In this document: one piece after another, positions 43,982 through 63,704 of the stretch
How positions within the stretch are numbered: the first letter of the stretch is position 1
Layout: the number at the start of each line of letters is the position of its first letter
NCBI GenBank assembly: GCA_965248265.1
Contig: CBDFJF010000002.1
Span: 2,368,001 to 2,432,000, forward strand
Origin: Candidatus Latescibacterota bacterium
GTDB lineage: Bacteria > Latescibacterota > UBA2968 > UBA8231
Length of the DNA: 64,000 bases
Direction: 5' to 3'
Translations under genes and position numbers: made by a program
The notes under the pieces: model-generated
The model's database searches: none
Told to the model about the DNA's origin: nothing
The model's input: only the letters and a program-made list of their open reading frames with translations

Positions 43982-44563
43982 GCTTAGTGAGGATAAAATA
44001 GGTTGGGGGTATCCATTTAACCGGACTATACACTGAGTGTTGTAGTATCAACGCGGATTCCCGCATTTTCAGGAGGCAGAAAGTATAGATCGGATGCTCC
44101 TCGGAGCGTCGCTGGTAGTTGCTGAAAATGCGCTCGACAAACCGGCCCATAGCCACGGCGTGAGAAAGAACGGCTCCGAAGCGAGCGAAGAGGATGTTGT
44201 CTCGTAGGAGTTCCAGCTTGCCGAACGCCTCTACCCCTGCCGTATTGAGTTGCCATCTTCGGGGCGGATTTCCCCTTGGGGCTCGTTGGAATTGTCGAGC
44301 CGCCCTCAATGCTACACACGACGAAAGTACCGGCCCCGTTGATAAACGTCGACAGAATCGCCACGGGCGGGCATCTCATCCACTTTTGGGTCATCTTCTT
44401 ACTATTTTTCCGAGGGGTCATGGCAAAGAAAGACCACGAAGGGACGCAGGGGCCGGGTTCGACCTCAAGATCTGGTATCCAGTCCGATTAAATGGATACC
44501 CCCAAAATAGGTTATCGTTACTCAGTCAGTTATTTTGGCAATTTGCCAGCGTTGATGGCGGTT
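43982..44563 (+). repeat. dif-like repeat unit copy 1 (interrupted by the MITE)
   Basis: GCTTAGTGAGGATAAAATAGGTT at 43982-44004, resuming AAAATAGGTTATCGTTACTCAGTCAG..GATGGCGGTT at 44504-44563. Confidence 0.9.
44005..44503. mobile_element. MITE / internally deleted IS, 499 bp
   Basis: Inverted repeats GGGGGTATCCATTTAACCGGACT (44005-44027) and AGTCCGATTAAATGGATACCCCC (44481-44503), 1 mismatch; 10-bp duplication AAAATAGGTT at 43995-44004 and 44504-44513. Confidence 0.92.
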
Positions 44564-44564
44564 T

Positions 44565-44789
44565 GAGGAACCTCATCTCGGTCGCTACTGGGAATCGGAC
44601 GAACAGAATCAGGAGCGCTGGGACACGATTGTCGTCGACGATGACTTCCTGGATCTGTTGGACATCGGTATCGAGACCGGGACGCTGTCGCCCCAGGGTG
44701 GGAGACTGATGGATGGCGACACCTGTCTGCTCAACGAGGAGGCGGTTAGGCCTCAAGGTGAGGAAGGTGAACAGCTCGGCAGCGGCTGA
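44565..44789 (+). pseudogene. Internal fragment of a MacB-like ABC permease periplasmic domain
   Basis: Manual translation gives VVDDDFLDLLDIGIETG..DTCLLNEEAVR; it begins immediately after the repeat unit with no start codon. Confidence 0.55.
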
Positions 44790-44846
44790 ACGCCCGGAGG
44801 TGAAGGGGAGGTCTTCTCAGAAAGCCCTAAACCGCGGGAACCGCCA

Positions 44847-44895
44847 AATGTTACATAGGGTTTACAATGTTACATAGAGTTTAGAGTTTACATAG
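44847..44895. promoter_or_regulatory. Tandem AT-rich direct repeats upstream of the secreted protein gene
   Basis: AATGTTACATAGGGTTTAC / AATGTTACATAGAGTTTAG / AGTTTACATAG. Confidence 0.55.
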
Positions 44896-44959
44896 TCTGT
44901 CCGGTGCCAGTCCTATTTTCTCGACTGACCTTTGCACGCCAAGACCTGCGGAGTTGCCC

Positions 44960-47900
44960 ATGAGAAAGTGGTGGTCGGGGAGGTGCGTAGTCGCCGTGCT
45001 TGTGCTGGGAGCCTCCACCCCTCTACAGGCACAGAACCGGGAGGGGTACTCCCTGCGGGGCAATCGGATTTTCGTCGATCGGTCGCGGCACTGGGAGGAC
45101 TGGAACTTCCCCTCCTATCTGGTGCGCGTCGACTCCGACGGCTCCGTGCGTGCGCGCAACTTCCGCGGGATAACGGATCTCCTGCAAGATTCGACCGGCT
45201 TCGCTCGCCAGGTCACCGTGAACTCGCCCACTCCCCGCATCCTCAACATGGACAGCACCCGGGTGGTCGGCTCCACGGGAGAGTTCCTCAAGGACTTCAA
45301 TGACAACTTCGTCTACAGCTACCTCGTCAGACCGGGGGTGAGCCGCGCCGGCTCCAACATCCACCTGGCCGGTAACATCATCGACGGCGACCCGAACACC
45401 TACTGGGAGCCCGACCCGAACGACCCCATCGAGGACTGGTGGGTCGAGGTGGACGTGGGCCGGGTCGCCTACGTGGAACGGCTGCGCTTCTTCTTCGCCG
45501 AGAAGGGGATGGGCGACCCCTTCTACCAGTTCATCCTGTACCTGGGAAAAAGGCAGAGCAATCACCTGACGGACGATCCCACTCCTTCCTACACCGTCCT
45601 CAACCCGATCGAGCATGGGGGAAACGTCGATCAGCGGGCCTTCGTCTACGAGGCGGATCGCGTCAATGACGAGCTCCCCGAGGACCGGCGGGCTGACCCA
45701 GACCTGATTCTGGGGCGGTCTCCGACCGACTGGACCGGCACCTTGCTCGAGGTCGTCCGCTTCCAGATCACGGGTACGCGAGGCATACGGGCCGAGCTGG
45801 TCAGCCGGGAGGAATGGGAGGCCCTGCCTCCCGGCGAGCGGGGCGAGGTCATCTACTGGCTGCAGGATGGGACCTTCGAGGAACCGGTCGAGCCGGCAGT
45901 ATATGCGACTCTTGCGCCGGAACGGCAGGGCCGCATCGACCACTACCGCCGGGAGCTGCCCCGGCTGAGCGAGGTCGAGGCCTGGGGTTGGGGAGACGAA
46001 ATCGGCCAGGCGGCGCAAAGCGGCGGCGGGGTGGTTGAGCTGACCTCTCCCGGAAACCCCAGCCGGATCTTCGACGGCGACTACAATACCCACGTCCAGT
46101 TGAGGACCTTGGATCGCTTGCTTCCGGGGGGCAACACCCTGGATGTGGATCTGGGATCCGCCGTCTGGCTGGACCGGATGATCGTCATCGGCGGCCCCCG
46201 CGGTTTCATCGTCCGCGGATCCACCGGCGCCCGGGGGCTGGGCGGCTACTTCCAGTGGGAGCAGCTCAATCCGGACGAGTGGGAGGATCACCGCTTGAGC
46301 TACGAGCAGGTCGCCATCTTCGATCCGCCCCGCCAGGTCCGCCACCTGCAGATGATCGCCCTGGCCAACGCCGCCGACCGGAACGAGATCAGCAGCAAGT
46401 TCTGGCCGCGGATTCGGGCCATCATGCTCTTCTCCGCGGGCACTCCGGCCCAGACCATCCTCGAGTCCCCCGTGATCGAGCTGCCCCGCCTCTACAACAT
46501 CGGCACCGTGCGCTGGGTGGCGGACGAGCCCCCGGGGTCCGAAGTGACGATCCGCACCCGCACCGGCACCGAGCTGGTAGAGGAAATCCACTACTACGAC
46601 AGGAACGGCGTCGAGAAGACGGAGAAGGAGCACAAGCGCTTGCCCCGTTCCCTCAAGGGACTGATCGACACCGCCATCGTCGCCGGCCCCGGCTGGAGTC
46701 CGTGGAGCGAAGAGATCGAGGTGTCTGGGGGTCAGGCCAAGTCGCCGGGACCGCGCCGCTTCCTGATGATCCAGGCCCGCCTGCTCAGTCACGACCGCCA
46801 GGCCGTGCCCTCCATCGAGTCGCTCACCGTGGAGCTGCTGGCGCCGGTGGCGCAGCAGCTGGGGGCAGAGGTCTGGCCCGAGGTGGCGACGGCCGGCGTT
46901 CTGGACACCTTCGAGGTCTACGTGCAGCCGCAGTTTCTCGAGCAGCCGGACACGGACCGCAGTCCCGGCCTCGACGAGGTCTTGCTGCACGGCGACCCGC
47001 CCCTCGACCTGTACCTGGTCGACGCCGCACTCGGCACCGAGTCCGAGCTCGTCCGGGGCGGGCCCCACGTGCTCTTCGAGCGGAGGGCTGATGGAGGCCT
47101 ACGGAGCGCGGACGGCCAGACCCTGCGCGTGATCAGCGAGGGGGACTCCCTGTGGTTCCGCCTGCCGTCCCCCGTGGGCAGCGCCTCCTCCGAGCTGGTA
47201 GGCCGGAGCTACTACCGACGTCTCGAAGTCGGGGCGCAAGTGCCGGCCAACCTGGCCGACAATCTGTTGAGCGTCAATGGCTACCTCGGATTGCCCGAAG
47301 AAGAGCGTGGCGCGATACGGTACTACCGCCGGGTCGCTGGGGCGCTTGTCGAAGTGGACAACGAGGCATACTACGAGCTGCCCGAAGAAGAGCGGGTGCC
47401 GATCCGGTATTACCGCATCGTCACCAGTCTCGGACAACAGACCGTCTTCGACGCGCGCGGAGACACTCTGGACCGCATCGGCCACGCCCGGCTGGGCGCG
47501 GACGAGCGCGGCTGGGTAGTCGGCCCGGGACGGCTCCTGCGCCTGCGCTTTGCCACCGTGGCCTACCTTCAGAGCACCCGGTTGCGGCTGTCCGTGCGCG
47601 AGAGCAGCGCGGCGCCGGACTGGCAGACCGCCGACGGGCAGGACGTGACCGGCCTGCGGCCGGCGAGCACCCTCGTCATCGCGACCCCGCCCAAAGCCAA
47701 CGTCCTCGGCGACCTGGCCATCGCTGCCAATCCCCTCACCCCCAACGGCGACGGCATCAACGACGAGGCCCAGATCGCTTTCTCCCTGTTCCAGGTCGCC
47801 GCGGCCCGTCCGGTGGTCCTGCGCATCTTCACCTTGGGGGGTGACGCCGTGCGCAGGCTGGAACAGCAGTTGACGGGAGGACCGCAGAGCTTCGCCTGGG

Positions 47901-48022
47901 ACGGCCGCGACGACGGCGGCGATCTCGTGCCTCCCGGCCTCTACCTGTGCCAGATCGAGGCATCGACGGATGCCTTGGACAAGAAGCATAGGGAGACTCG
48001 CGTAATCGGTGTCGTCTATTGA
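44960..48022 (+). CDS. Large secreted protein with discoidin-like segments and C-terminal FlgD-Ig-like domain
   Basis: Signal peptide (..PLQAQ), IIDGDPNTYW, IFDGDYNT, NPLTPNGDGIND..WDGRDD.G..VPPGLY. Confidence 0.85.
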   Translation: MRKWWSGRCVVAVLVLGASTPLQAQNREGYSLRGNRIFVDRSRHWEDWNFPSYLVRVDSDGSVRARNFRGITDLLQDSTGFARQVTVNSPTPRILNMDSTRVVGSTGEFLKDFNDNFVYSYLVRPGVSRAGSNIHLAGNIIDGDPNTYWEPDPNDPIEDWWVEVDVGRVAYVERLRFFFAEKGMGDPFYQFILYLGKRQSNHLTDDPTPSYTVLNPIEHGGNVDQRAFVYEADRVNDELPEDRRADPDLILGRSPTDWTGTLLEVVRFQITGTRGIRAELVSREEWEALPPGERGEVIYWLQDGTFEEPVEPAVYATLAPERQGRIDHYRRELPRLSEVEAWGWGDEIGQAAQSGGGVVELTSPGNPSRIFDGDYNTHVQLRTLDRLLPGGNTLDVDLGSAVWLDRMIVIGGPRGFIVRGSTGARGLGGYFQWEQLNPDEWEDHRLSYEQVAIFDPPRQVRHLQMIALANAADRNEISSKFWPRIRAIMLFSAGTPAQTILESPVIELPRLYNIGTVRWVADEPPGSEVTIRTRTGTELVEEIHYYDRNGVEKTEKEHKRLPRSLKGLIDTAIVAGPGWSPWSEEIEVSGGQAKSPGPRRFLMIQARLLSHDRQAVPSIESLTVELLAPVAQQLGAEVWPEVATAGVLDTFEVYVQPQFLEQPDTDRSPGLDEVLLHGDPPLDLYLVDAALGTESELVRGGPHVLFERRADGGLRSADGQTLRVISEGDSLWFRLPSPVGSASSELVGRSYYRRLEVGAQVPANLADNLLSVNGYLGLPEEERGAIRYYRRVAGALVEVDNEAYYELPEEERVPIRYYRIVTSLGQQTVFDARGDTLDRIGHARLGADERGWVVGPGRLLRLRFATVAYLQSTRLRLSVRESSAAPDWQTADGQDVTGLRPASTLVIATPPKANVLGDLAIAANPLTPNGDGINDEAQIAFSLFQVAAARPVVLRIFTLGGDAVRRLEQQLTGGPQSFAWDGRDDGGDLVPPGLYLCQIEASTDALDKKHRETRVIGVVY

Positions 48023-48069
48023 GAAAAGCCCCGTCTTCACCCTTGTCCGTATCCCGCCGACGAGGGCGC

Positions 48070-48205: not shown

Positions 48206-49933
48206 CTACTCGATCCAGAAGGAATACAGCTTGGCATCTTTCAGATGAAACGCGAGGCGGATGTAGCGGTCATTCAGACTTCCCAGTTTCTTCTCGTTGC
48301 TCCAGCCGACGCGTTGGCGGGTCGAGTCGCCACGGACCGCCTGGCAATTTTCCTCACCAAAGCCGTCGATCCGACTGCCGTCTTCCGCCACGACCGAGGC
48401 ACGAACGTAGCCGTTGGGACAAACGTCGGCGTTGACGAACAGCTTGCCTTCCCCCTCAAACACCAGTGGGCGCGTTATCACGACGCCGGCCTCTTCGGCG
48501 GCATTGAGCGAAGCGAAGCCGTCGCGGCGGAGGATCGCCAATCCAGTTTTTTGCGCCCAAGAGTTCTTGGGGCCGTCTCCATTCGAGCCCATGTAGTAGA
48601 ACCACAGCTCGTCGTCCTTCAACAGTGGGCCGCTGACGGTGGGCGCATGGGCCATCTGTAGATAGTGCGGTTTCCAACTGCCCTCCGGCCCCATCGGAAT
48701 GAACGGCTTCCGGTCGCCGAGGTAGTAGAAGTGTCGTCCGTCCCGGCTCCCGGCCAGACGAAGCCAGTTGCGCTTCATCCAGGGCCGGGTTGGCATCAGG
48801 TTGCGCTCCCGGCTGTCTTCGCGGCTGGCCGGATGGTAGCAAGTCATCGAGAAGCAGTTCAGCCACATGCTTTCGTAGCAGAAGCCGTCGGCCTTGTAGA
48901 CGCCTTGCATGCCGGGGGTCTTGGCATCTTCGCCATCGGGATAGGCATAGATCCGCGGACTGGACCAGTGGATCAAGTCGTCGCTCTCGCACATGGCCAT
49001 GGCGCGGGCCGAATGCCACACGGGGGTCACCTGGTGGTCGGGTCCGATGACGTGCTTGGTGTTGGCGACATATTTTTGGAGCTTTTTATCCCACCTCACG
49101 TGCAACACGTCGCCGACCCCGACCGGCTGATGATCCGGCGCCTGAAAGACGCAGGCGCCCTTCGGCAGGGAGACGTGGGTCTTGACGGTCCATCGGATCC
49201 CGTCCGGCGAGACGGAGAGAGCGTGCATAGAGCCCTGAGCCGGTTGGGACTCGTCATATCTGTGCCCGGTCGGCCAGATCAGTTCGCCCACGCCCGGCGC
49301 TTGAACGAGAAGATTCGTGGTCGGGTCGCGCCGATGCGCCCAGGTCACCTTCTTCATCGGAGCGCCGCCAATCGCCTTCCACCGCTGCGAGGGGTCCGGA
49401 TCATCGGGCTCGTAGAACAGCCCGGCCGAAAAACCGCGTCCAAGGATCACGTTGTTCGGGCCGCCGACAAAGCGCTGCGGTTCGGCGGAGTGGTCGTAGA
49501 TATCCAGATCGGGTTTTTCCCAGTTCACGCCGTCGGTGGAATAGGCCATGTACATCAAACCGCCGGGCCCGCCGTAGTACATGCGATAGCCATGCTCATC
49601 GTCCGGGCACACGAAATGCCCGTAGGCGCTACTGAGGCCGTCGCCGCGAATATGGGTCAAAACCGGGTTGGCGGGATGATCCCGCGGACTGTGAAACCGG
49701 CGCTTCAGCCCCCGCTGGTGCGCTATAAGAAAATCATCGACGAAAAGCTGTCGTGTCGTGTCGATCTTCATGCGCCAGAGGCACAGATCCTCGGGGAACA
49801 TTAAACGCTCGTTGAGCATGATGCCGTACCCGCGAGGAAACACCGACCAGTCGGTCACCAGGTCGGATTCGTCCCACGGGGGCTGAATGTTCCGGTCGTC
49901 CACCTCTACGGCGAGTGTCTTTGTCTGGGCCAT
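48206..49933 (-). CDS. GH32-like beta-propeller hypothetical protein, paralog 2
   Basis: QLFVDD, YSTDGVNW, ESDDLIHW, LRRDGFASL..KLYSFWIE. Confidence 0.78.
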   Translation of the reverse strand: MAQTKTLAVEVDDRNIQPPWDESDLVTDWSVFPRGYGIMLNERLMFPEDLCLWRMKIDTTRQLFVDDFLIAHQRGLKRRFHSPRDHPANPVLTHIRGDGLSSAYGHFVCPDDEHGYRMYYGGPGGLMYMAYSTDGVNWEKPDLDIYDHSAEPQRFVGGPNNVILGRGFSAGLFYEPDDPDPSQRWKAIGGAPMKKVTWAHRRDPTTNLLVQAPGVGELIWPTGHRYDESQPAQGSMHALSVSPDGIRWTVKTHVSLPKGACVFQAPDHQPVGVGDVLHVRWDKKLQKYVANTKHVIGPDHQVTPVWHSARAMAMCESDDLIHWSSPRIYAYPDGEDAKTPGMQGVYKADGFCYESMWLNCFSMTCYHPASREDSRERNLMPTRPWMKRNWLRLAGSRDGRHFYYLGDRKPFIPMGPEGSWKPHYLQMAHAPTVSGPLLKDDELWFYYMGSNGDGPKNSWAQKTGLAILRRDGFASLNAAEEAGVVITRPLVFEGEGKLFVNADVCPNGYVRASVVAEDGSRIDGFGEENCQAVRGDSTRQRVGWSNEKKLGSLNDRYIRLAFHLKDAKLYSFWIE

Positions 49934-50438
49934 ATCGGGCAACTCCGTGCTCGGCGTTTGAAGCGGTTCTCTGTCCTGCTGACCGGGATGTACCGCGACA
50001 GCGAAGAGCAACTCATGCCGGGCATCTTCGCGTACTCACCGTCGGGGCAAGACGGATAGTGGTTATAAACACGCTATCGGGAGTCGGTCAAGTGGATTCT
50101 TGGGCTTTGCGACCGCCGTCGCGGGTTTTCGGGGGTGACCATCGGCGAGTGGCTCGACTGCGCAGCCTGATTCGGGCCGCCGCGCCTGATCGATCCCCAA
50201 GGCCCTCTCGACATGACGCCCCAACCGATCTAGACTACTGATAATGCCCTCTTATCCTTCCTCCTGATTCGGCCGCTGGTCTGATCAGGCGCGCCCCTAC
50301 AGGCCTTGGCGGCGCTCGACGAAGGCCGCATGCTGAGCGTGGCCGACAATACCAGACGCCGATTCAAGGAAAAATGACCTTCAAAAGTGTCCGACAAAGA
50401 TTCGGTTAAGCACATGTGACCTACCAAGGGAGGCCAAT

Positions 50439-52154
50439 ATGAGCGCCACAAAGCGAACCTGGAACGAATCGGCCGCCACGATGGACTGGACGCCGTTTCC
50501 CGTCGGCTACGGCATCCTGCTCAACGAGCGCTACCAGTTCCCCATGGACATGGCCCTGGTGCGTATGAAGCTGGACAACAGCCGGCAGCTATTCGTCGAC
50601 AACCACGTCATAGCCCATATGGAAGGGCTCACCCGCGAAACCCACTCGACGCGAAGCCACCCGGCAAATCCCGTCTTCGCGCCTTACGATGATTTCAACA
50701 AGGGTCACGCCTTCACTCGCAACCCCGGTTTTGGAAACTCGGCGTACATCTGCCCGGACCCCGAGCACGGGTTTCGGCTCTACTACAACGGACCTGGAGG
50801 GGGAAGCGGTAGCGGATGGGCGCTGCACGTGGCTTACTCCAGCGACGGCGTCAACTGGGATCTGCCTGAGCTCAACGTCTTCGACGACCTCGACCGCAGC
50901 AGCTTCCCGGGCGGCCCGAACAACGTCGTCAGCGCCGTAGGAGAGCTGAACGGGCTCTTCTTCGAACCGGATGACCCCAACCCTGAGCGGCGATGGAAGG
51001 CCATCCACCGGCCCAAACGGCGTCCACTCAGGCACACACCCTGGCCGTACTTAAGGTTGCCTCCGGGGAACCCCGGTACCGGAGCGCCCTACGAGCTGCA
51101 CGTCTCCCCCGACGGACTTCGGTGGACCTTCGAGGCCGAGACCAATCAATGGAAAACCATTGACGCCTGGGACTCCGGTGGTGTTCACGGGCTGTATAGT
51201 CAGCTCACCGTTCATGGTGACGTCCCCCAGTATCCTCTTCTTGGCGGCGGCGACGTCTTCCGGGCCCGCTGGGACCCCATTCTGGGGAAGTACGTTGGCA
51301 ACACCAAGCATTACATTGGACCCGACCGCCGCATGTCGCCTGTCTACCACGCCGCCCGTGTCGTGGGCCAGATCGAGAGCGACGACCTGGTCCACTGGTC
51401 GGCCCCGCGCATCTACGCCTACCCCGACGGCGAGGATGCCAAGGAGCCTTTCAGCGCAATGCAGGGCATATACGAGGCGGACGGCTATCCCTACGAGAGC
51501 ATGTGGCTCAACAACTTCTCCATGTCCACTGTGACCCCGGCATCGAAAGAGGAGATTCGCGATAGGGACATGACACGGCAGTACAGCAAGAACAACTGGA
51601 TACGGCTGGCGGCCAGCCGCGACGGCCGGCACTGGTACTACTTCGGGGACCGCAAGCCGTTTATCCCGCTGCGTCCGGAGGGACGCTGGAAGGAGAAAGC
51701 CGGGGTGCCGAACAAGCCGCAGTACCTACGCGCCGTCAATCTCGCTACGACGGGCGGGCCGATCATCAAGGACGACGAGCTCTGGTTCTACTACCGCGGT
51801 GGCGGTTCCACGGGGATCGCCGTCCTGCGCCGCGACGGCTTTGCGTCCCTCAACGCCGACGAGGACGGCGGGCTGGTGTTCACGCGGCCGTTCATATTCG
51901 AAGGCGAGGGCAGGCTGCACGTCAACGCCGAGGTTTCAGCCGGCGGATACGTGCGCGCCGCGGTGGTGGATGAAGACACCGCAGAGGAACTTGGAGGCTT
52001 TACCGAACACGACAGCGTCGGGGTCACCGAGGGCTCGACGAGGGCGCCACTGTGCTGGGGAGAGCACGAATCGCTGGGCCAGTTCAAGGACCGCTACGTG
52101 AGGCTGGCCTTCCATCTCAAGAGCGCCAAGCTCTACTCCTTCTGGGTCGAGTAG
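50439..52154 (+). CDS. GH32-like beta-propeller hypothetical protein, paralog 3
   Basis: Closely similar to 48206..49933 throughout; RBS GGGAGG. Confidence 0.8.
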   Translation: MSATKRTWNESAATMDWTPFPVGYGILLNERYQFPMDMALVRMKLDNSRQLFVDNHVIAHMEGLTRETHSTRSHPANPVFAPYDDFNKGHAFTRNPGFGNSAYICPDPEHGFRLYYNGPGGGSGSGWALHVAYSSDGVNWDLPELNVFDDLDRSSFPGGPNNVVSAVGELNGLFFEPDDPNPERRWKAIHRPKRRPLRHTPWPYLRLPPGNPGTGAPYELHVSPDGLRWTFEAETNQWKTIDAWDSGGVHGLYSQLTVHGDVPQYPLLGGGDVFRARWDPILGKYVGNTKHYIGPDRRMSPVYHAARVVGQIESDDLVHWSAPRIYAYPDGEDAKEPFSAMQGIYEADGYPYESMWLNNFSMSTVTPASKEEIRDRDMTRQYSKNNWIRLAASRDGRHWYYFGDRKPFIPLRPEGRWKEKAGVPNKPQYLRAVNLATTGGPIIKDDELWFYYRGGGSTGIAVLRRDGFASLNADEDGGLVFTRPFIFEGEGRLHVNAEVSAGGYVRAAVVDEDTAEELGGFTEHDSVGVTEGSTRAPLCWGEHESLGQFKDRYVRLAFHLKSAKLYSFWVE

Positions 52155-54351: not shown

Positions 54352-54542
54352 ATGGATCCTTCACTTCGTCATGTTAGCAGAGAGAGACGAATCAAAGGAG
54401 CCATCACGTTCGGTTTATCGGACTAAGGGCCTGCATGGTTCGACGAATACACGCTGGAATCCGCCAGGCGAATTCCGCTCTTGCTGCTGCATGGAGAGCA
54501 CGACGAATGGGCTCCAGTCGCTCTCTCGGAGCGAGCCCGCGC
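54352..54542 (+). pseudogene. Alpha/beta hydrolase (esterase-like) fragment cut at the repeat unit
   Basis: RIKGAITFG, in-frame stop at 54424, then RIPLLLLHGEHDEWAPVALSERAR running into GCTTAG. Confidence 0.6.
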
Positions 54543-54618
54543 GCTTAGTGAGGATAAAATAGGTTATCGTTACTCAGTCAGGCGTTATTTTGGCAATTTG
54601 CCAGCGTTGATGGCGGTT
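54543..54618 (+). repeat. dif-like repeat unit copy 2 (intact)
   Basis: Arms AGTGAGGATAA 54547-54557 and TTATCGTTACT 54564-54574, spacer AATAGG, followed by the conserved tail. Confidence 0.9.
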
Positions 54619-55072
54619 GCTGAGGCTACGAACAGTGTCCTCGGGAGCCGCTCTGAGCGAAACGGGCGTTTTCAGCGACAATGGTGGTGGGAAGCATTCC
54701 CAGGCAACGAACACGGAGAACCATACGGTGCCGGTCAGCCACCCGGAGCCGATGAACCCCAGCGGATGGATGCGCCACAGTCCCTGATGGAAATCACCAA
54801 CAAGGGCCTTTGTACACCCTCCGTAAATCTTGTCTTGGTGAGTCCCCAACTTACGAAACCCCGTATTCCCGCTGGAGCGATGCCGCAGGCTCACCGTGCC
54901 TCTGTCGGTGCGATTCTCCACAACCTGACCATACCTCCCGATGTCGGGGCGGTTTCCGACCGTCATCCTACGTGGTATATTGCCAGTGTTGACACCGTTG
55001 GCGGGGCATTTCGCCTCGCTTTTGAGCAGTGTCTTCGCAAACCGGCCCTCTGGCACCTCAAGGAGAATCGCC

Positions 55073-56092: not shown

Positions 56093-56147
56093 CGTCGTTC
56101 CACTCGCCAGCTTTTCTCCTCAGGTGGGGTCCTGAGAACGTGAGCAC

Positions 56148-56471: not shown

Positions 56472-56525
56472 TGCGCCCCCGCTTCTCGACTGCGAATATG
56501 CGGTCGGTCCATCTCCGGGTGCACA

Positions 56526-57302
56526 TCACGCCGTCAACCCGTCCAGCTCGATCATCTCCTCTTGAGTCAGCTCCCAATTGAACAGATCCAGATTCTCCCG
56601 GAGGTGATCTTCCGAGCTCGCCTTGGGGATGACGATGACCTCTTTCTGGACCAGCCATCTCAGCGCCACCTGAATCGGCGTCTTGCCGTGATATTGGGCG
56701 ATCGCTCGAATTGCGCTAGAGTCCGCGACGCGGCCCCTTTCCAGCGGGGTGTACGCTGTCACCACCACGCCCCTCTCCTGGCAGTGCTCTCGCAGCTTTT
56801 CTTCTTGGCTGTGAAGGTTGTATCTGATCTGATTGACGGTGATCTGGACCCGACTGATACGTCGGGCCTCGTCGACCAAGCTCTCGGAGAAGTTGCTCAC
56901 GCCGATTACGCGAGTCTTTCCCTCTTCTTGCAGCTGGGCAAAAACGTCTAGCGTCTCCTCGAGCGACACGGTCGCGGGGGGCCAGTGGATGAGAAGCAGG
57001 TCGACGTACTCGAAGCCGAGCTGATCGAGATTTTCCTGGTGTTGAGTCAGAGCAGCGGTCTTGCTCAGTTGATCGCGCCAGATCTTACTGGTCAAAAAAA
57101 TCTCGTCATACGGGACACCGCTCGCCCGGATCCCCTCCCCAACCTCGCGCTGATTCTCGTATCGCCAGGCTGTGTCGATGTGACGGTACCCCATCGTGAG
57201 TGCCGCCTCGACCGACGCCACGCAACGAGGGCCGCGCAACTGAAAGGTGCCGAGGCCGAGCATCGGCATGTCGTGGCCAGTGCTTAGTTGGACTGCGTGC
57301 AC
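56526..57302 (-). CDS. Aldo/keto reductase (2,5-diketo-D-gluconate reductase-like)
   Basis: GLGTF, IDTAWRY, TSK, DLLLIHWP, GVSNF, IPKAS. Confidence 0.92.
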   Translation of the reverse strand: MHAVQLSTGHDMPMLGLGTFQLRGPRCVASVEAALTMGYRHIDTAWRYENQREVGEGIRASGVPYDEIFLTSKIWRDQLSKTAALTQHQENLDQLGFEYVDLLLIHWPPATVSLEETLDVFAQLQEEGKTRVIGVSNFSESLVDEARRISRVQITVNQIRYNLHSQEEKLREHCQERGVVVTAYTPLERGRVADSSAIRAIAQYHGKTPIQVALRWLVQKEVIVIPKASSEDHLRENLDLFNWELTQEEMIELDGLTA

Positions 57303-57319
57303 AACGCCGCCTTATAGAA

Positions 57320-57371
57320 GATCAGCGACCAAAATCGATACTTTGTCAAGATGCTGGCGCGGGTGTGTAGG
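57320..57371 (-). repeat. ~50-bp imperfect repeat, copy A (promoter/operator-like)
   Basis: Aligns with 59699-59748; TTGACA on the minus strand next to an ATCGAT-centred palindrome. Confidence 0.6.
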
Positions 57372-58329
57372 TACTGACCCTGGTGACAGCCTGAATCAGC
57401 GCGGTGATGTAGCCGTACTGAAAGGCGAACTTCTGGCTCACCCGGTTGGATACGCCCTCCGGCGCCACGTCGTCGGGATGGCTCGGCGCGTGGTCGGGCA
57501 TCAACATGTAGGGATAGCCCGTGGCGTGAAAAATTCGCGCGAGGCCGTACATGTCGACGTCGCCTTCGTCCGGCCACACTTCGACGAAGTCGTGCAAGCC
57601 ACCGCGAATATTGCGGAAGTGGACATTGAAGATTTTCTTGCGCTCCGAGAAGTACTGGACGATCTCTGGCAGCTCCTGCGCGGGATTCTCCAGTCCTTCA
57701 GACGCCACGCCGCAGCAGAAGTTGAACCCGTGGTATGGGCTGTCGACGAGCTCGCTGAACCGCTTCAAACCCTCGAACACGGGCCAGTTCCAGCGTTCGA
57801 CGCCGTTGAGGACGGGAGCCGGCGGGTCGGGCAGGTGACAAGCCATCTGCACTTCGTATTCCTCGGCGACGGGAATCACTCTCTCCAACCAATAGGCCGC
57901 TCGTTCGAAGGCCTCGTCCCTGCTGACGACGCCCGCTTCTGACAGTGTGTCGTTGTCGAATTTGTCCAACTCGAACGAGCTGTACGACGACCCTCCGCGT
58001 CCCGGCCGGCGCTCCGTGCGTTGATGGCCCAGGATGCAGAAGTTGTAGTTCAGGCCACGCAAGCCCGCTCTGCCCGCGTTCTCGATCAAGCCGCATACCG
58101 TGTCCAGATCCCGGTCGCGCTGCGGATCCTGGGCGAGGGTGATGCTCCTGGGCAAATCGATATGGATCGTCTCCAACTCCACGCCCTCGGCCGCAGCTTC
58201 TTCTCGGTGCCGCGTCAGCGTCTCGACATCCGTGCCGTCGACTACCGCGTCCATGTGTGTGACGCCGTGGCGAACCAGAAACTCCAGCTCCATCTTCGAC
58301 GTTCCTATGCCCTGTGTACCTACGTACAT
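57346..58329 (-). CDS. uxuA: Mannonate dehydratase family protein
   Basis: YNF, HLPDPP, NFCCG, VHFRN, DEGDVDM, MPDHAP. Confidence 0.8.
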   Translation of the reverse strand: MYVGTQGIGTSKMELEFLVRHGVTHMDAVVDGTDVETLTRHREEAAAEGVELETIHIDLPRSITLAQDPQRDRDLDTVCGLIENAGRAGLRGLNYNFCILGHQRTERRPGRGGSSYSSFELDKFDNDTLSEAGVVSRDEAFERAAYWLERVIPVAEEYEVQMACHLPDPPAPVLNGVERWNWPVFEGLKRFSELVDSPYHGFNFCCGVASEGLENPAQELPEIVQYFSERKKIFNVHFRNIRGGLHDFVEVWPDEGDVDMYGLARIFHATGYPYMLMPDHAPSHPDDVAPEGVSNRVSQKFAFQYGYITALIQAVTRVSTYTPAPAS

Positions 58330-58369
58330 CGTTCATTCCTTTCACTCTTGCGGCTTGTGTTAACCGCGG

Positions 58370-59473
58370 TCACTGCCCCGCCGCCCTCAACCGGTCGCGA
58401 ATCGACTCACCCGTCATGCCGACCCTGGCGATGTCGATGCTCAGCGCGACGTCGTGTCTCGCGTCCTGCAGCGTGGAGCGGCACTCCGTGCCATTCACAA
58501 TGCAGTCGTGAAAGTGTCTGAGCTCCGCAATGAATGCGCTCTCCCAGGGAATCGTCGGCTCCTTGCGAAAACTCATGCCGTTCTCTTCGTCGATCCCCTG
58601 GACGACCAGCTCGGACAGCACTCGTCGTGAGAATCCGGTGCAGTAGGACAGCAGGACGCGCTTGCTGTCGCCATACACTTCCAGCGTCTCCCTGAAGTCC
58701 CACAGGTCCACCAAATCCACGTGTGACAGGACACAACGAGCGCCGTTGGGAAACTCCAGCACCGTGTTGATGTCGCGATTTCCGTGCCAGATCTCAGTGC
58801 TGATGACGGCGCTCGGCACTCCCAGCATCGTGCGCAGGCTGTAGAGATCGTGGATCAAGCCGAAGGCGACGCCGTAGCGCTGTGCTTCCTCGGCCAGCGC
58901 GCCGAAGGCCTCCTCCCTGCGCGCCGACGACGCTTCTTGGCGCGCTTCGACAGCCGACGTCGGCACGTCGTCGAAGTAGCGCAGCCGGAACTGCGCCAGA
59001 TGCAGCTTGTTGTGGGGGTGCAGGTGATTGATCTGGACGAAGTGGTAGTCGTCCATGGCGTCGATCTCTTGTGCCGCCATCAGAAAGGCCGGATCGTAGA
59101 TCTTCATATACGCCGCCTGCCCCACTTTCCCCGCCATCTCCTGCGCCGCGACCATGCGGTCGATCTCCTGCAGCGAGCGAGCGACGGGCTTTTCCACCAG
59201 GACGTGCTTTCCTGCCGCGAACGCCGCGACCACGGTCTCTTGATTGCCGCCGCTGTGGCACAGCAGCACGGCGTCGATATCCTCGTCCAACAACGCGTGA
59301 AAATCGCTGACGTGGTTAGGGACCTTGAAGCGCCTCGCCGCATACCCGGCCAATGCGGCCGAAATATCGCAGACGACGACCACTTCGAACTCCTCGTCGA
59401 GCTCGAGCAGATTGGGCAGGTGCTGCACTTGCGCGACAGCACCGCAGCCTACGACTCCAATTCGCACTGCCAT
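58370..59473 (-). CDS. Gfo/Idh/MocA family oxidoreductase
   Basis: IGVVGCG, AGKHVLVEKP. Confidence 0.9.
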   Translation of the reverse strand: MAVRIGVVGCGAVAQVQHLPNLLELDEEFEVVVVCDISAALAGYAARRFKVPNHVSDFHALLDEDIDAVLLCHSGGNQETVVAAFAAGKHVLVEKPVARSLQEIDRMVAAQEMAGKVGQAAYMKIYDPAFLMAAQEIDAMDDYHFVQINHLHPHNKLHLAQFRLRYFDDVPTSAVEARQEASSARREEAFGALAEEAQRYGVAFGLIHDLYSLRTMLGVPSAVISTEIWHGNRDINTVLEFPNGARCVLSHVDLVDLWDFRETLEVYGDSKRVLLSYCTGFSRRVLSELVVQGIDEENGMSFRKEPTIPWESAFIAELRHFHDCIVNGTECRSTLQDARHDVALSIDIARVGMTGESIRDRLRAAGQ

Positions 59474-59698
59474 TCTGTCGTTCCTCTGCTACTTTCGGTG
59501 AACGTTGAGGACACCGATGCGCGGCACGAGCGCGTTCCCTTCGTCTGTCAGATCGAACGAGCGCCCGTACGTCTCGAGCAACGGCTCCCACATGTTTTCG
59601 CGGTCAAGGACAGATAATAGTGCGTCTCGGCATCTTATCGAAATGAATCCCTCGGCGTAGACGCAGTTGCCGTATGCCGTAGGCAAACGGATAGACAC

Positions 59699-59748
59699 GA
59701 TAAGCGGCCATTATCGATATTTTGTCAACGTGCTGGCGTGTGTGTAGG
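59699..59748 (-). repeat. ~50-bp imperfect repeat, copy B
   Basis: GATAAGCGGCCATTATCGATATTTTGTCAACGTGCTGGCG..GTGTAGG aligns with 57320-57371. Confidence 0.6.
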
Positions 59749-59919
59749 GGTGACTGCTCGGCAGACCTGGCCAAAGGATAGTTTGGAGTGCGTGACGAAC
59801 TCTACGCGTTTCAATTCGGCTACCCACCCATGCAGTATCGGTCTGTTGCTGCGCAGCGGATCCGGGTCGGCTATCCGTTTTGCGCCTCTGTCAGGACCTC
59901 TTCGATGATTTTCAGAGTG

Positions 59920-60069
59920 CCGGCGACGTTGGGCTGACTCCTGCGAGATGTCCATGGCCGCCACGACTTCGGCGTCGTCTGTTGGCTCCAGCTTCTGGCG
60001 TGCGAACGGTCCATGGCGCCGCAGCCGATGAGGCGACAACGTAGCGGATATCCCCAGTCGAGGAGACAT
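59920..60069 (-). pseudogene. Degenerate N-terminus of a Gfo/Idh/MocA gene
   Basis: LIGCGAMDRSHARSW and DDAEVVAAMDIS in shifted frames. Confidence 0.5.
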
Positions 60070-60509
60070 TGACGGAGAAGCCGATGTTCAGGGTCACCGC
60101 CCAGCAGCACGTGACGACCAACAAACAATCCGGCAATAGCTGGAGTCGATTGAGCGTTGGCCAGGGCAAAACCGTGATGGCCCTGCCGCCCTCACCGAAC
60201 CCCGCTCGATCCAGCGCCACCTGCAGGGCGTTGGCCTGCCCGCACGGGCACCACCAATCGCACAGGCACGGCCATCCCAGCAGTCCGAGTTCGAATACGC
60301 CGCCTGATTCGAGCGGGTACCGTCCTGATCCGACGGGATCGATGCGCCTGAATCGACCCTGCGGGTCTGCAAAACCGCCGAAAATCTATCCTTAGCCCCG
60401 AAGCCAAGTTCGTCATACCAGCCGGCTCCGCGAAACACGCATTCCGTCCCTCACAAAATCCCCAGATTCCATTCGACACCAAGGTCCTGAGGGTTCTAAA
60501 CTATCTATA

Positions 60510-62786
60510 ATGCTGCTTATCGTGCCTAACCGTGAGGCACAAAAACTTATGACCGCGCTCATCGCGTCGGTGACCGGCGCCCTCCTGCTGGCTCTCACCC
60601 CCAGCACCCTGTGGGCCCGTGCCGAGTTCCACCTGGGCTCCGCAGATAACACATGGGAACTCTTTGGCATTCCCTACGAACGGTTCGTCCTCAGTGAGGA
60701 CGGGACCAGTCTGACCAGGCAGAGTACGGGAGAGGAGGTGACGACCGGTTTCTACATCATAGTCGATGAGGACGGAAACGAGCTGGACCGGCGCGACGTG
60801 AGCGGCCTTCTCGAGGTCGGCGGAGGGACCATGCTGGAGGAATACAACTACCGCGGCCCCGACCAGCCCTCCATGGAAGGGGATGTGCTGCAGGCGGTCC
60901 GGGTCGATCCCACGGAGAATCTGGCGCTGCTCGACAACCTCTACCCCCGCGGTGGGGGCATCTTTCACGGTCACAACACCGGCGCCTACGCGGGCCCCGA
61001 GTTCCGCTCCCACATCGACGGGGATCCCACGACCACGCGCCTGGTGCTGTTCAGGGGGAACCCGCTGGAGCAGGAGCCGTTGATCGCCGGCGGCGTCTAC
61101 CTGGGAGCCCAGGCCACGGCCGTTATCATCAACCTGGGTCTCCAGATGCCGATCAACCGCGTCCGCATCTATCCCCGCCTCGGCAGGCTCGACGATGCCG
61201 CCGCCATCGCCGGCATGGCCGAGCCCAAGCCGGACCCGGAGTCGTTCGGGGAGACCAGCTTTGCCGGCAATTACCTGGAGTGGTACGAGATCGCCGTCAC
61301 CGACAACGACGCCCTCATCAACGAGCTCGTCGGGGCCGGTGGGACCAGTCGTCCCGGCCGCCACGGGTTCAAGAACTTCTCCGAGACCTCCGGGTACGTC
61401 GATTCCGCCGCCACGGACCCGAGCTTCGAAGCGCTGATCCAGACCAGGGACAACCTGGATTCGGTCATCGACTTCCGCTTCCCCACGCGCGATGTGCGGA
61501 TGGTCTCCGTCCGCCCGTATATCCCGACCCGCACGTGGGAGGTGGCGGAGATCGAGGTATACGGCGAAGGTTACGTCCGCCGCTCCGTTTACCGCTCGCG
61601 GATCCTCGACTTCGGCCGCCCCGTCACCTGGAGCAAAATCCGCTGGTCCGGGGAACAGCCGCCCGGCACCAGGATATCGATCCGTTCCCGCACCGGGAAG
61701 ACCCGGGAGACCGATCTGTGGCTGCTGCGCACGGTGACCGGGAAATTCGTGGAGACCGACTTCGACACCTGGCTCCGTGAATACCCTTCCAGCGATGCCC
61801 AACGCACCCTGGACCGGGACAACTGGAGCTTCTGGTCCGCCACCTACAGCTTCGCCGCTGGCCTGCGCGACGAGAGCGCGCCGGCCGCCGCCTGGACGGA
61901 CGGCACCCGGTTCCTCTCCCCGGGACCCACCCGCTACCTGCAGCTCGAGATCGTGCTGGAGGCCACCGCCGACCAGACGCCGCGATTGGACGATTTGTCC
62001 CTGTTGTTCTCCGAGGCGTCGGCCGCCGAAGAGGTAGTCGGCGAAATCTGGCCGATCGAGGTGGACAGCTTCGAGCCCCAATCCTTCACATACGTCGTCA
62101 AGCCGGTGCTGAGGGATGGCAATGCGGGATTCGACCGTCTGGAGATCTTCACCTACGGCCCGGCCGAGGTCTCGTCGCTGCGCGTGGGCGGCCAGGAAGT
62201 CGACCTCGGCGATGACCGCTACAAGCCGGACATCCGGGAAGACCGCGTCATCCTCTCCTTCGACCGGCTGGTGGACCCCCGGCAGGACAACGAAAAGCGG
62301 ATCGAAGTGGAATTCAGCGCCCGGGTCCTCCGTTTCGGCGCCGAATTCAGCGGCTGGGTCTACGACAGCCGGGAGCCGGAGCTGAAGCAGACGATCAGGC
62401 CGGGCAATGCCACCATCCGCTTCATCGGCGACGTCCTCTCCGTGCGCACCCCGGCCGGTGGCGACCTGGTGCAGCAGCTGGAGATCCTGCCTCGCGCCTT
62501 TACCCCCAACGGCGACGGGGTCAACGACGAAGCCTCCATCTCCTTCAACCTGCGCGATCTGACGGACCAACGCCCCGTCGACGTGCGCATCTGGACCCTC
62601 GACGGCCGCTCCGTGCGGCGCCTGATCGCGGCCGCCCCCACGGCCAGCGGCCACTTCACCCGTCGCTGGGACGGCCGCGACGATGCCGGCCTGTTGGCCC
62701 CCCCGGGAGTCTACATCGTCCAGGTCGAGCTCCACAGCGACGAGGGCCGGAAAACCGCCGCGGGGACCCTCTCCCTGGCCTACTGA
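60510..62786 (+). CDS. Large secreted protein with C-terminal FlgD-Ig-like domain (related to 44960..48022)
   Basis: Signal peptide (start may be 60549), IDGDP, IRSRTG..NWSFWS..SPGPTRYLQ, GEIWP, FTPNGDGVND..WDGRDD..PPGVY. Confidence 0.87.
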   Translation: MLLIVPNREAQKLMTALIASVTGALLLALTPSTLWARAEFHLGSADNTWELFGIPYERFVLSEDGTSLTRQSTGEEVTTGFYIIVDEDGNELDRRDVSGLLEVGGGTMLEEYNYRGPDQPSMEGDVLQAVRVDPTENLALLDNLYPRGGGIFHGHNTGAYAGPEFRSHIDGDPTTTRLVLFRGNPLEQEPLIAGGVYLGAQATAVIINLGLQMPINRVRIYPRLGRLDDAAAIAGMAEPKPDPESFGETSFAGNYLEWYEIAVTDNDALINELVGAGGTSRPGRHGFKNFSETSGYVDSAATDPSFEALIQTRDNLDSVIDFRFPTRDVRMVSVRPYIPTRTWEVAEIEVYGEGYVRRSVYRSRILDFGRPVTWSKIRWSGEQPPGTRISIRSRTGKTRETDLWLLRTVTGKFVETDFDTWLREYPSSDAQRTLDRDNWSFWSATYSFAAGLRDESAPAAAWTDGTRFLSPGPTRYLQLEIVLEATADQTPRLDDLSLLFSEASAAEEVVGEIWPIEVDSFEPQSFTYVVKPVLRDGNAGFDRLEIFTYGPAEVSSLRVGGQEVDLGDDRYKPDIREDRVILSFDRLVDPRQDNEKRIEVEFSARVLRFGAEFSGWVYDSREPELKQTIRPGNATIRFIGDVLSVRTPAGGDLVQQLEILPRAFTPNGDGVNDEASISFNLRDLTDQRPVDVRIWTLDGRSVRRLIAAAPTASGHFTRRWDGRDDAGLLAPPGVYIVQVELHSDEGRKTAAGTLSLAY

Positions 62787-62860
62787 AGGGCCGGAGAGGG
62801 GCATTTTTTTCTTGCTTGATGCTCTATCTTGTTCTGCAGTTCACGCAACCCGGGCGTGTC

Positions 62861-62930
62861 GATCAGCTCGATCGCGGCCAAGATCGGCTGTACGCCGGAG
62901 ACCCTGCGCTCGTGGGTACATCGGAGTGAG
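62861..62930 (+). mobile_element. IS3-family OrfA helix-turn-helix remnant
   Basis: ISSIAAKIGCTPETLRSWV, fused in frame to an unrelated fragment (ORF 62829..63365). Confidence 0.65.
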
Positions 62931-63280
62931 TACACCGTTGTGTTCCGGATCCTCCTCCCGCCTGATCGGGTTCTCGCCAGACTCGACTGGCCCGACATCA
63001 CCGGCGCTGCCGCACTGATTGAAGCGTTGAACGACCATTGGCAGTGTGACGTGGTTTCCGAGTTGGCTGAATGCTGCCTTGACTCGGAGATCCCCTGGAT
63101 ACACAAGAGTCGCATCGCAGAGATATTGTGGAGCCTGGCACCAGACCGGTACTTTGACTCTGGCGTTCTATGTCACATGCTGACCGCCGAGGTCCCCGAA
63201 CTTGGTCGGACCGAGGCTGAAGGAATGGTGTCGCTGCTCCGAGAGGATGCCCCTCGGTTCCTGAATGAACTGCTTCGACT

Positions 63281-63532
63281 CTACCACCGAACCTTCCTGA
63301 CCCCTCGCTTTGCTCGCGCTACCATGGTCGCTGCCGCACGTCCTACCTTGCTGTCATGGAAGTAGACATCACCGTAGCCGAGCCCAAATGCCAGCAAATC
63401 CACACCCGTGCCCAGCAGTTCGTCCACCGGCCATCGCAGTTTGTGAAGGCTCACGGGTGGATCGAGCCTCTTTGCATGGTAGTGGTGCGCGTCTTGATAG
63501 TAGATCAGTCTCGGCTTGTTCATCAGCTTCAC
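63281..63532 (-). pseudogene. N-terminal fragment of a glycoside-hydrolase-like (DUF187/GHL-type) gene
   Basis: MNKPRLIYYQDAHH..WPVDELLGTGVD..YFHDSKVG, then truncated; RBS GAGGGGAG; family name tentative. Confidence 0.65.
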
Positions 63533-63627
63533 TCCCCTCTAATGTCGTGTCCCAGGAATTCCTTGCGTTTTCTGACGCCGATCCAGTATGTGCTGGGACT
63601 ATAGTGTCCAATTTCGGAAGGGTGTGT

Positions 63628-63704
63628 GCTTAGTGAGGATAAAATGGGTTATCGTTACTCAGTCAGTCGTTATTTTTGGCATTTTGCCAGCGTTGATGGC
63701 GGTT
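63628..63704 (+). repeat. dif-like repeat unit copy 3 (intact, spacer AATGGG)
   Basis: Arms 63632-63642 and 63649-63659 identical to copy 2; tail differs at a few positions. Confidence 0.9.

Follow-up and report, generated by a model that had tools for sequence, protein, structure and literature searches.

The AT-rich unit that recurs in the window (the whole 64,000-nt stretch of DNA analyzed here, at 2.37-2.43 Mb of the contig C2) is very probably the outer, oriIS-type end of an ISCR/IS91-like rolling-circle insertion sequence of the HUH nuclease kind, with the copies in the window being relics of such elements (Table 1). An earlier note on this DNA had interpreted the same unit as a dif/Xer-like site bounding blocks of captured cargo; if the unit is an IS end, these "cargo blocks" become merely the DNA lying between decayed transposon ends.

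Three copies of the unit, all on the + strand and with unrelated flanks, are indeed present where the earlier note had placed them, and the core-to-core distances it gave (10,561, or 10,052 without the insert, and 9,085 bp) are recovered as the spacings of two repeat families (10561 and 9085 for D7; 10052 and 9085 for D14). The two arms of the core are also, as claimed, complementary at 9 of 11 positions when read from the sequence. A search for the 28-bp core allowing ≤3 mismatches found two intact instances in the window (at 54547 and 63632) and none in 100 shuffles, while in a third core, at 43984, a 499-bp element interrupts the sequence after 44004. The repeat described as a unit of ~76 bp is real, but it starts 2 nt earlier, with a GCGC/GTGC at 43980, 54541 and 63626, and two of its copies are longer, copy 2 extending to about 54680 and copy 3 to 63743-63815. 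Apart from an internal gap of 28 bp, copy 2 aligns to element positions 1-179, and copy 3 aligns to positions 1-128 by BLAST and up to about 199 by profile; neither is followed by a transposase. The window units are about 5% divergent from each other, and neither profile searches nor alignments recovered an intact element of their subtype in the genome. Their flanks are short gene pieces, as had been noted, and the NHL label is borne out by Pfam; the 77-aa "MacB-like" and 38-aa "esterase" frames flanking the units gave no Pfam match, and these two labels are hence by-eye readings only. The 499-bp insert is foreign to the unit and inactivates copy 1: its 23-bp terminal inverted repeats are complementary at 22 of 23 positions, and a 10-bp direct duplication flanks it (43995-44004 = 44504-44513).

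Table 1. Ends, relics and the insert in the window (window coordinates unless marked C2)
Feature	Position	Strand	Remarks
Copy 1, first 25 nt of ISCR-like outer (oriIS-type) end	43980..44004	+	ends where the 499-bp element breaks the palindrome spacer
499-bp insert	44005..44503	.	23-bp terminal inverted repeats, 10-bp target duplication
Copy 1, rest of end (unit positions about 16-76/89)	44504..44563	+	then abrupt switch to an unrelated 77-aa open frame
Fourth, diverged end of the same type, about 60 nt	50050..50112	+	profile match C2:2418056-2418146, E 7.6e-4
Copy 2, outer end	54541..54680	+	intact 28-bp palindrome 54547-54574
Second-subfamily (F-type) relic	60185..60533	+	last ~39 codons of transposase and 226 bp to the outer end
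Copy 3, outer end	63626..63815	+	intact palindrome 63632-63659
Internal ISCR-like fragment	22782..23161	-	inner end region and 3' end of transposase gene, without outer end
Two short internal transposase-gene pieces	39218..39317	+	49 and 35-38 nt, 86-96% identical

Further relics are scattered through the window. The fourth end, absent from the earlier list, sits between two divergent genes within the supposed first block, and the 9-10 kb spacing is thus no regular period. In the F-type relic the transposase stop is at 60307 and the outer end at 60533, and at the boundary between 60533 and 60534 begins a 2.3-kb segment that is 93% identical to C2:2109824-2112150. The earlier statement that no recombinase gene is visible in the window holds for tyrosine recombinases; ISCR-type transposase gene fragments are nevertheless present, at 22782-23161, 39218-39317 and 60185-60307.

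Searching the 7.3-Mb genome (2 contigs) with a profile of the first 214 bp of the repeat recovered the end at 44 places, 29 on the + and 15 on the - strand, in both contigs, and remnants of transposases lie on the inner side of many of these copies. Arrays of units in one orientation recur: one comprises seven units and one complete element within 24 kb (C2:1134270-1158167), and further pairs of units occur at C2:2705452/2707346 and 2775528/2777393. Spacing between units ranges from 1.3 to 10.5 kb, and each interval holds several genes and pieces of genes. The DNA of the unit was found in none of the 40 relatives searched. Related loci come from marine Latescibacterota-like MAGs and the matching sequencing runs are from seawater, which suggests that a marine bacterium of this kind is the host.

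The complete copy (C2:1156228-1158167) supplies the link to a transposase. Here the unit lies 241 bp past the stop of a gene for a 471-aa protein, encoded on the - strand directly inside the copy designated U7 (C2:1156469-1157884), which contains the Pfam domains Y2_Tnp (PF04986, E 1.1e-28) and Zn_Tnp_IS91 (PF14319, E 3e-17) and an HVH motif visible in the tblastn alignment. Its best NCBIfam match is ISCR_clade_Ia (E 1.4e-111, residues 2-460), albeit below the curated cut-off (373.6 versus 925 bits), as is its score with the IS91 model (103.1 versus 125 bits), indicating a distant relative rather than any named ISCR. On the + strand, an abrupt boundary is followed by GCGC, then by the imperfect palindrome of 28 bp, a non-coding stretch of ~210 bp, the antisense transposase gene and a different end; BLAST of the sequence past the start of the transposase gene (C2:1157885-1158200) finds no likeness to the unit, so that the two ends are unlike. 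This is the single complete copy of the A-subtype in the genome, and it is nested within an array that is flanked by a 162-bp repeat of 96% identity. The association is not confined to this copy: tblastn recovered 40 transposase pieces genome-wide, six of them near full length, and in five of these six an ATAA-N6/7-TTAT site occurs in the same orientation at a distance of 210-297 nt beyond the final aligned codon. Features typical of IS91/ISCR elements, namely an HUH transposase with both domains beside the end, a palindrome in fixed orientation downstream and unlike ends without terminal inverted repeats, are found together. The earlier note had listed a match to a known IS end among the outcomes that would refute its model, and such a match is seen here in kind, with the IS residing in the same genome.

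All 11 unit copies that were aligned or read begin at a sharp left edge and vary in how far they extend to the right. The bases before TTAGTG are GCGC in 10 of the 11 and GTGC in the remaining one, preceded by a random base, and this tetranucleotide may be part of either the element or the target; the tetranucleotides CTTG/GTTC that IS91 targets were not found beside the unit end in any of the 11. Joints to unrelated DNA lie 6 nt outside the core, where the edge is sharp, or at points 18-507 nt within the element, and the inner junctions have no common motif. A crossover in the 6-bp spacer, as at Xer sites, would place new junctions inside the core, which is not the pattern seen. Folded as single-stranded DNA, the palindrome of the complete copy reaches -6.1 kcal/mol, a value equalled or bettered by 1 of 200 shuffles. 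The hairpins of the window copies are weak (-2.9 and -3.3 kcal/mol, equalled by 25 and 6 of 200 shuffles), the F-type relic forms no hairpin in the same folding, and the arm changes between subfamilies in the profile alignment are non-compensatory.

The position and shape of the unit are those of an IS91/ISCR oriIS with a subterminal palindrome, as they match the descriptions in the excerpted text of PMC13181058 and PMC13393415. According to the former excerpt, the oriIS and terIS ends of IS91-family elements are distinct and bear imperfect palindromes in subterminal position, the last 82 bp are enough for oriIS function, no target duplication is made, and adjacent DNA is moved by one-ended transposition; an excerpt of PMC5737581 describes one IS91 oriIS as 167 bp downstream of the coding sequence, and that of PMC13393415 mentions secondary structures forming at ISCR ends. 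By analogy with IS91, the transposase would nick the strand starting at the boundary and peel it toward the transposase gene, the palindrome might act as the subterminal recognition structure of the origin, and the peeled strand would then insert elsewhere without inverted repeats. The three window copies and the fourth, diverged one would be old relics that retain only the first 60-190 nt and no transposase, each joined precisely on its outer side, often in a gene, and raggedly to unrelated DNA on its inner side. The inner part may have been lost by deletion once the element had inserted, or in rolling-circle events that were abortive or one-ended, and the blocks probably lie in a heavily rearranged, IS-riddled stretch. 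The part of the earlier reading in which the unit is a boundary of mobile DNA, joining unrelated sequence with broken genes, is in fact supported. This family of elements is known to move adjacent DNA.

Several observations count against the IS-end reading, namely the transposase scores below cut-off, the weak or missing hairpins outside the complete copy, the uncompensated arm changes and the departure from CTTG/GTTC. In addition, at C2:1134270-1156443 seven ends, 98-99.5% identical and in one orientation, lie within 22 kb, each with a different inner cut; a plain relic model does not readily account for these.

A more active role for the remnants is conceivable. Direct oriIS remnants lacking transposases could serve as origins and terminators for a transposase supplied in trans, so that boundary-to-boundary segments move as rolling-circle cassettes via single-strand circles, re-insert beside another unit and let arrays accrete; such joints would be exact on the side held by the nuclease and ragged on the opposite side, like those of T-DNA. 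This reading is consistent with the recurrence of same-orientation arrays (the 24-kb array, the three or four window units and the two pairs), with cargo that has broken genes at both ends, and with two units that share an inner breakpoint at 214 nt and enter different DNA beyond it. There are also precedents: oriIS alone suffices for one-ended transposition in the excerpts of PMC5737581 and PMC13181058, and an ISCR28 "sandwich", in which two sequential oriIS enclose a captured gene, is described second-hand in that of PMC12772301. Inverted-repeat ISCR ends, remnant-oriIS sandwiches and tandem structures likewise figure in the excerpts of PMC13393415, PMC12772301 and PMC7722449, with the first cautioning that the clinical ISCR mechanism "has not been experimentally proven". 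However, a search of the flanks of 33 units found no second copy of any unit-cargo junction in the genome, the matches of ≥85% being parts of transposons, further IS copies, segmental duplications or paralogs. The inner junctions share no motif; the internal transposase fragments without ends point instead to general decay; and the divergence of the window units, with no intact element of their subtype, also speaks against capture. The composition of the blocks is mostly native-like, block B falling within the 5-95% background, block A slightly above it in GC, and the 3-kb C above it in both GC and tetranucleotide distance. A single joint that "goes back" (63732 to 54619) among short contigs is accounted for by other copies of the unit. 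We regard capture by such transfer as unlikely, and it seems rather doubtful that trans-acting oriIS remnants make cassettes of the inter-unit DNA, with 1-10 kb blocks of ordinary metabolic genes accreting in the chromosome of an uncultured marine bacterium. If true, it would make ISCR-type capture a form of general genome shuffling beyond antibiotic-resistance contexts.

The interpretation offered in the earlier note, of serial integration of blocks (in the manner of pdif, IMEX or integrons) by XerC/D or another tyrosine recombinase at a dif-like core, is highly improbable. It draws on the 11-6-11 layout with inner ATAA/TTAT, on identity at 15 of 22 arm positions to the E. coli dif as quoted in that note (a count made from the quotation), and on the direct orientation of the window and near-identical copies. 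Against this, the site is found in physical linkage with HUH transposase genes and in 44 copies on both strands and contigs; its sharp boundary is outside the core and not in the spacer, the sole break in a spacer being that made by the element with terminal inverted repeats and its own 10-bp duplication. The window is also remote from the cumulative GC-skew maximum (C2 ~3.48 Mb, about 1.05 Mb away), and of the 18 tyrosine-recombinase (PF00589) matches none lies within about 600 kb of the window, nor within about 360 kb of the C2:1.13-1.16 Mb array. An integron, which has an intI tyrosine recombinase and attI beside an array of attC-bounded cassettes, is likewise not supported: these recombinase matches are remote and the spacing of 1.3-10.5 kb does not give regular ~10-kb cassettes. 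Assembly artifacts, through repeat collapse or mis-joining, are comparably improbable: although such repeats fragment short-read graphs and Logan contigs stop inside units, the genome is in just 2 contigs, each unit has its own inner cut point and substitutions, and a contig from the run X10 spans 62876-63676 with zero differences while others cover 54652-57739 and 57717-60353, the X10 support not being independent as this run may be the source sample.

A false lead is removed, in that the evidence supports no new capture system of a Xer-based or integron-like kind, and an abundant, multi-subfamily ISCR/IS91-like population is recorded in a phylum that is known chiefly through metagenomes. In annotation, these ends can be recognized by the 28-bp palindrome beside GCGC, and the many natural end-only remnants joined to unrelated DNA make this genome usable for questions of truncation and neighbor-gene mobility.

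Among known systems, the element can be compared with the ISCRs (ISCR1, ISCR2, ISCR8, ISCR28). It resembles them in the best match of its transposase (ISCR clade Ia), in a single orientation-specific end that bears a small palindrome and lies ~240 bp downstream of its gene, in the many truncated copies of which nothing but the oriIS side is left, and in direct repeats enclosing unrelated genes; it differs in a transposase score far below the family cut-off, in its apparently marine Latescibacterota-like host, and in neighbors that function in sugar and amino-acid metabolism or are secreted proteins, rather than resistance genes. With IS91, IS801 and IS1294 it shares the Y2_Tnp and Zn_Tnp_IS91 domains, unlike ends and an imperfect palindrome downstream of tnpA, whereas its IS91 model score is below cut-off and its flanking GCGC/GTGC departs from the CTTG/GTTC of IS91; where IS91 presumably has two tyrosines (YxxxY), the 471-aa protein shows one (CRYVNRPP). 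The dif, pdif and IMEX sites have the same 28-bp 11-6-11 imperfect palindrome with inner ATAA/TTAT, in contrast to which the present unit is many-copy, off-terminus, HUH-linked and distant from recombinases, with its junction outside the core; moreover, pdif modules alternate in site orientation while the units here are direct. The Helitrons and the Agrobacterium T-DNA, HUH-led systems of eukaryotic or inter-kingdom setting with one precise and one ragged end, are reminiscent by analogy of the present element, with its precise end on the side where the nuclease would be expected to sit, its variable other end, adjacent gene fragments and multi-copy arrays.

The AT-rich repeat with the 28-bp core (11-6-11, inner ATAA/TTAT) is present at all three places in the window where the earlier note reported it. 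The repeat finder recovered the core-to-core distances given there (10561 and 9085 for family D7; 10052 and 9085 for D14, made up of the inner parts), and the arms are indeed near-inverted repeats, complementary at 9/11 positions. The core is intact at 54547 and 63632, with a match in 0/100 shuffles. While the copies are real, their boundary had been drawn slightly too far in: the true left start lies 2 nt earlier in each case (see the table), with GCGC or GTGC as the first bases and a different preceding base in every copy. The three copies are ~95% identical among themselves and 80-90% identical to other subfamilies, and all of them stop short of where a transposase gene would begin; the genome has no complete element with an end of their subtype. 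They are flanked by short, unrelated gene pieces, as had been claimed, though a Pfam search of the 77-aa and 38-aa flanking frames gave zero matches and the earlier labels "MacB-like" and "esterase" are unconfirmed. A 499-bp element (44005-44503) bounded by 23-bp terminal inverted repeats splits copy 1 after 44004; it is placed exactly in the spacer and accompanied by a 10-bp target duplication (43995-44004, repeated at 44504-44513). This element encodes a 131-aa ORF on the minus strand (44026-44421) with only a weak match to DUF6011; since it has just two relatives in the genome, both partial (C1:1038716-1038883 and C1:1237238-1237269), it is no typical multi-copy MITE.

A search of the 7.32-Mb genome (2 contigs, C1 and C2, with the window at C2:2368001-2432000) for the core at up to 3 mismatches recovered 10 sites, all on the + strand of C2 and seven of them within 22 kb (C2:1134276-1156261). 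Alignment of the core-bearing copies revealed a sharp, common left edge from which homology extends rightwards; the first 214 nt are common to the aligned copies at 98-99.5% identity, and the inner stop points fall at 18, 71, 214, 214, 320, 353, 401 and ~507 nt. A profile of the 214-nt end recovered 44 places belonging to several diverged subfamilies, 4 on C1 and 40 on C2 (29 + and 15 - overall). Given the strand bias on C2 (27 + vs 13 -), the transferred strand would be the template for lagging-strand synthesis in that replichore, but this is only a hint because the copies are clustered and not independent. Seven end copies and one complete ISCR-like element form a 24-kb array (C2:1134108-1158328), with an 18-nt stub of the end directly preceding the complete copy; on either side of the array stands a 162-bp direct repeat (96% identity), in which a 568-aa beta-propeller-like gene has its 3' end. 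Both contigs also carry a different, highly active-looking IS type of ~1.3 kb, with a 399-aa ORF having an HTH N-terminus (e.g. C2:2777850-2779163); at least 9 copies of it exist, 99.8-100% identical.

In the complete copy, U7 (C2:1156228-1158167), a minus-strand ORF of 471 aa comes after the end, with its stop codon 241 bp from the edge. The protein contains the Pfam domains Y2_Tnp and Zn_Tnp_IS91 and a readable HVH motif. Its residues 2-460 match the NCBIfam model "ISCR element clade Ia family transposase" with E 1.4e-111, at 373.6 bits against a cut-off of 925; the match to "IS91 family transposase" reaches 103.1 bits against a cut-off of 125. Where IS91 has two tyrosines (YxxxY), this protein appears to have one (CRYVNRPP). 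A tblastn search with this protein recovered 40 pieces in the genome, 6 of them near full length. In 5/6 of the latter an ATAA-N6/7-TTAT site is found in the same orientation 210-297 nt past the last aligned codon, and the sixth retains only the inner part of the end. The region past the transposase start shows no likeness to the unit, and hence the two ends of the element are unlike each other. As this anatomy matches that described for IS91/ISCR, the 28-bp "dif-like" core is read as the subterminal palindrome of an oriIS-type end. The first 40 nt of the master copy fold as single-stranded DNA at -6.1 kcal/mol (1/200 shuffles equal or better). However, the folds of the window copies are weak (-2.9 and -3.3 kcal/mol), the second-subfamily relic gives no fold at all, and arm differences across subfamilies include no compensatory changes; a hairpin at the end is therefore plausible rather than demonstrated.

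Further debris of such elements lies between and around the three copies, and four more fragments are present within the 26 kb that follow the window. The ~10-kb cassette spacing proposed earlier does not survive these additional ends and pieces: 9-10 kb is no period, and "block 1" is itself subdivided by debris.

Element-derived features in the window and sequences flanking the copies
Feature	Position	Strand	Content
Further end-like sites	near 19190-19291		
Internal element piece	22782-23161	-	
Internal element pieces	39218-39317		
Left of copy 1			~90 aa of an NHL-repeat protein (Pfam NHL)
Copy 1	left edge 43980		element positions 1 to ~76
Right of copy 1			77-aa open frame
Fourth, diverged end	50050-50112	+	same type of end
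Left of copy 2			38-aa frame, wedged between the unit and an intact BNR-repeat gene
Copy 2	left edge 54541		element positions 1 to ~179 (28-bp gap)
Second-subfamily relic	60185-60533		last ~39 transposase codons, stop at 60307, 226 bp to the outer end
Copy 3	left edge 63626		element positions 1 to ~128-199

The fourth end lies between divergent 601-aa (48206-50011, -) and 571-aa (50439-52154, +) paralogues without a Pfam match, which form the inverted repeats I1 and I2 (73-74% complementary); additional paralogues are found at C1:808-818 kb and C2:2442.8-2444.4 kb. A 2.3-kb segment with 93% identity to C2:2109824-2112150 begins exactly at the outer edge of the second-subfamily relic (60533/60534) and runs to 62832; at the C2:2109824-2112150 locus, the stop codon of a neighbouring gene directly precedes the start of homology. 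This segment encodes a 758-aa secreted protein with a FlgD_ig/CHU_C type IX secretion C-terminal domain. Its C2:2109824-2112150 counterpart comes immediately after a homologue (67% identity) of the 1022-aa gene at 44954-48022. In the window, 12.5 kb of DNA containing transposon relics separates the two genes. Between the duplicated segment and copy 3, a 178-aa ORF (62829-63365) with weak, below cut-off matches to HTH_28 and HTH_23 may be what remains of a different type of transposase.

In every relic the outer junction is precise, often within a gene, and the inner junction is ragged and leads to unrelated DNA; for instance, a gene of ~980 aa is reduced to its last ~348 codons at C2:1150256. 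The plain explanation would be that elements inserted and later lost their inner part along with neighbouring DNA, wherever rearrangement was tolerated, and the internal fragments without ends favor it. Alternatively, the block pattern might have been made by ISCR-type one-ended transfer, or by a "sandwich" of two sequential oriIS. Consistent with such transfer, and awkward for the plain explanation, are the seven near-identical, like-oriented ends that share a 22-kb stretch yet have different cut points, the two ends that have the same 214-nt breakpoint and continue into different DNA, and the direct pairs with ~1.9 kb between them that recur elsewhere in the genome. Against it, in addition to the end-less fragments, a genome search with the flanks of 33 units found no donor copy of any block with the same unit-cargo junction, and the inner breakpoints have no motif in common. 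The composition of the blocks is also mostly native-like: block B is inside the 5-95% background range, the GC of block A is slightly above it (0.625 vs 0.621), and only the 3-kb block C exceeds it in both GC and tetranucleotide distance; foreign origin is neither supported nor excluded by these values. On balance we regard one-ended transfer or the sandwich as an unlikely source of the pattern.

The proposal of the earlier note, that the units are dif/Xer-like or integron-like sites, fares far worse. The GC skew of C2 is positive from 0 to ~3.45 Mb with a cumulative maximum at ~3.48 Mb, which places the window ~1.05 Mb away from it. The 18 matches to the tyrosine recombinase domain (PF00589) in the genome include none in the window (the nearest are at C2:3.03 Mb) and none near the 1.13-Mb array. 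The host has two Xer-like recombinases, encoded in the regions C1:1754279-1754761 and C2:769754-770266. No junction to foreign DNA falls in the spacer: such junctions lie either 6 nt beyond the core or deep within the element, and the sole spacer event is the insertion of the TIR element, which has a duplication of its own. Combined with the link to an HUH transposase, these results leave very little room for a Xer or integron model. Separately, at the cumulative skew maximum, the region C2:3483146-3484780 contains three 11-6-11 sites with inner ATAA/TTAT adjoining a tyrosine-recombinase gene (C2:3483398-3483937); the site at 3483149 has a right arm nearer to the quoted dif arm (8/11) and that at 3484647 is a perfect 11-bp palindrome, and this region could hold the real dif of the genome. 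Of other readings, a known RNA is not indicated (zero window matches to Rfam at gathering thresholds), a promoter or leader conserved across a gene family was rejected as the adjoining genes differ and lie on either strand, and a guide-RNA scaffold of a TnpB/IscB/IS110-type element was dropped given that the adjoining gene is an IS91/ISCR transposase.

The genus has no other genome for a strain comparison, and relatives align at 65-85% DNA identity in scattered places only. The unit was not found in the relatives searched (0/40), many of which are fragmented MAGs, a kind of assembly from which repeats are often missing. A search of genome contigs recovered five related loci, in four Candidatus Latescibacterota MAGs and one Acidobacteria MAG, which consist of transposase fragments only (76-160 of 471 residues aligned) and lack the end; this group may commonly carry fragmentary relics, or its repeats may assemble poorly. 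Metagenome contigs yielded 19 loci at no more than 73% protein identity and without useful synteny. Parts of the stretch are present in 15 public runs, comprising seawater metagenomes and two organism runs; runs X10, X1, X3 and X14 offer only short contigs ending at repeats, and uncovered parts carry no meaning. The joint 63732 -> 54619 arises from the chimeric placing of unit copies from elsewhere that lack the deletion, and it does not reveal a circle junction.

The element is a distant member of the ISCR/IS91 family, and its one precise and one ragged end are reminiscent of Helitrons and T-DNA. In the IS91 family, according to PMC13181058, oriIS and terIS are distinct and their subterminal palindromes imperfect, the last 82 bp suffice for oriIS function, there is no target duplication, the functional intermediate is a single-stranded circle of the bottom strand, and one-ended transposition makes up 1-10% of events and carries adjacent DNA along. 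One IS91 oriIS sits 167 bp downstream of the CDS (PMC5737581), and ISCR ends are described in PMC13393415 as inverted repeats that form secondary structures. In resistance contexts, ISCRs have already been described as leaving end-only remnants, forming tandem structures and capturing genes next to them (PMC7722449, PMC12772301, PMC13393415), and the "sandwich" of two sequential oriIS is reported second-hand via PMC12772301. The element accordingly belongs to the known ISCR/IS91 kind and is not a new recombination system.
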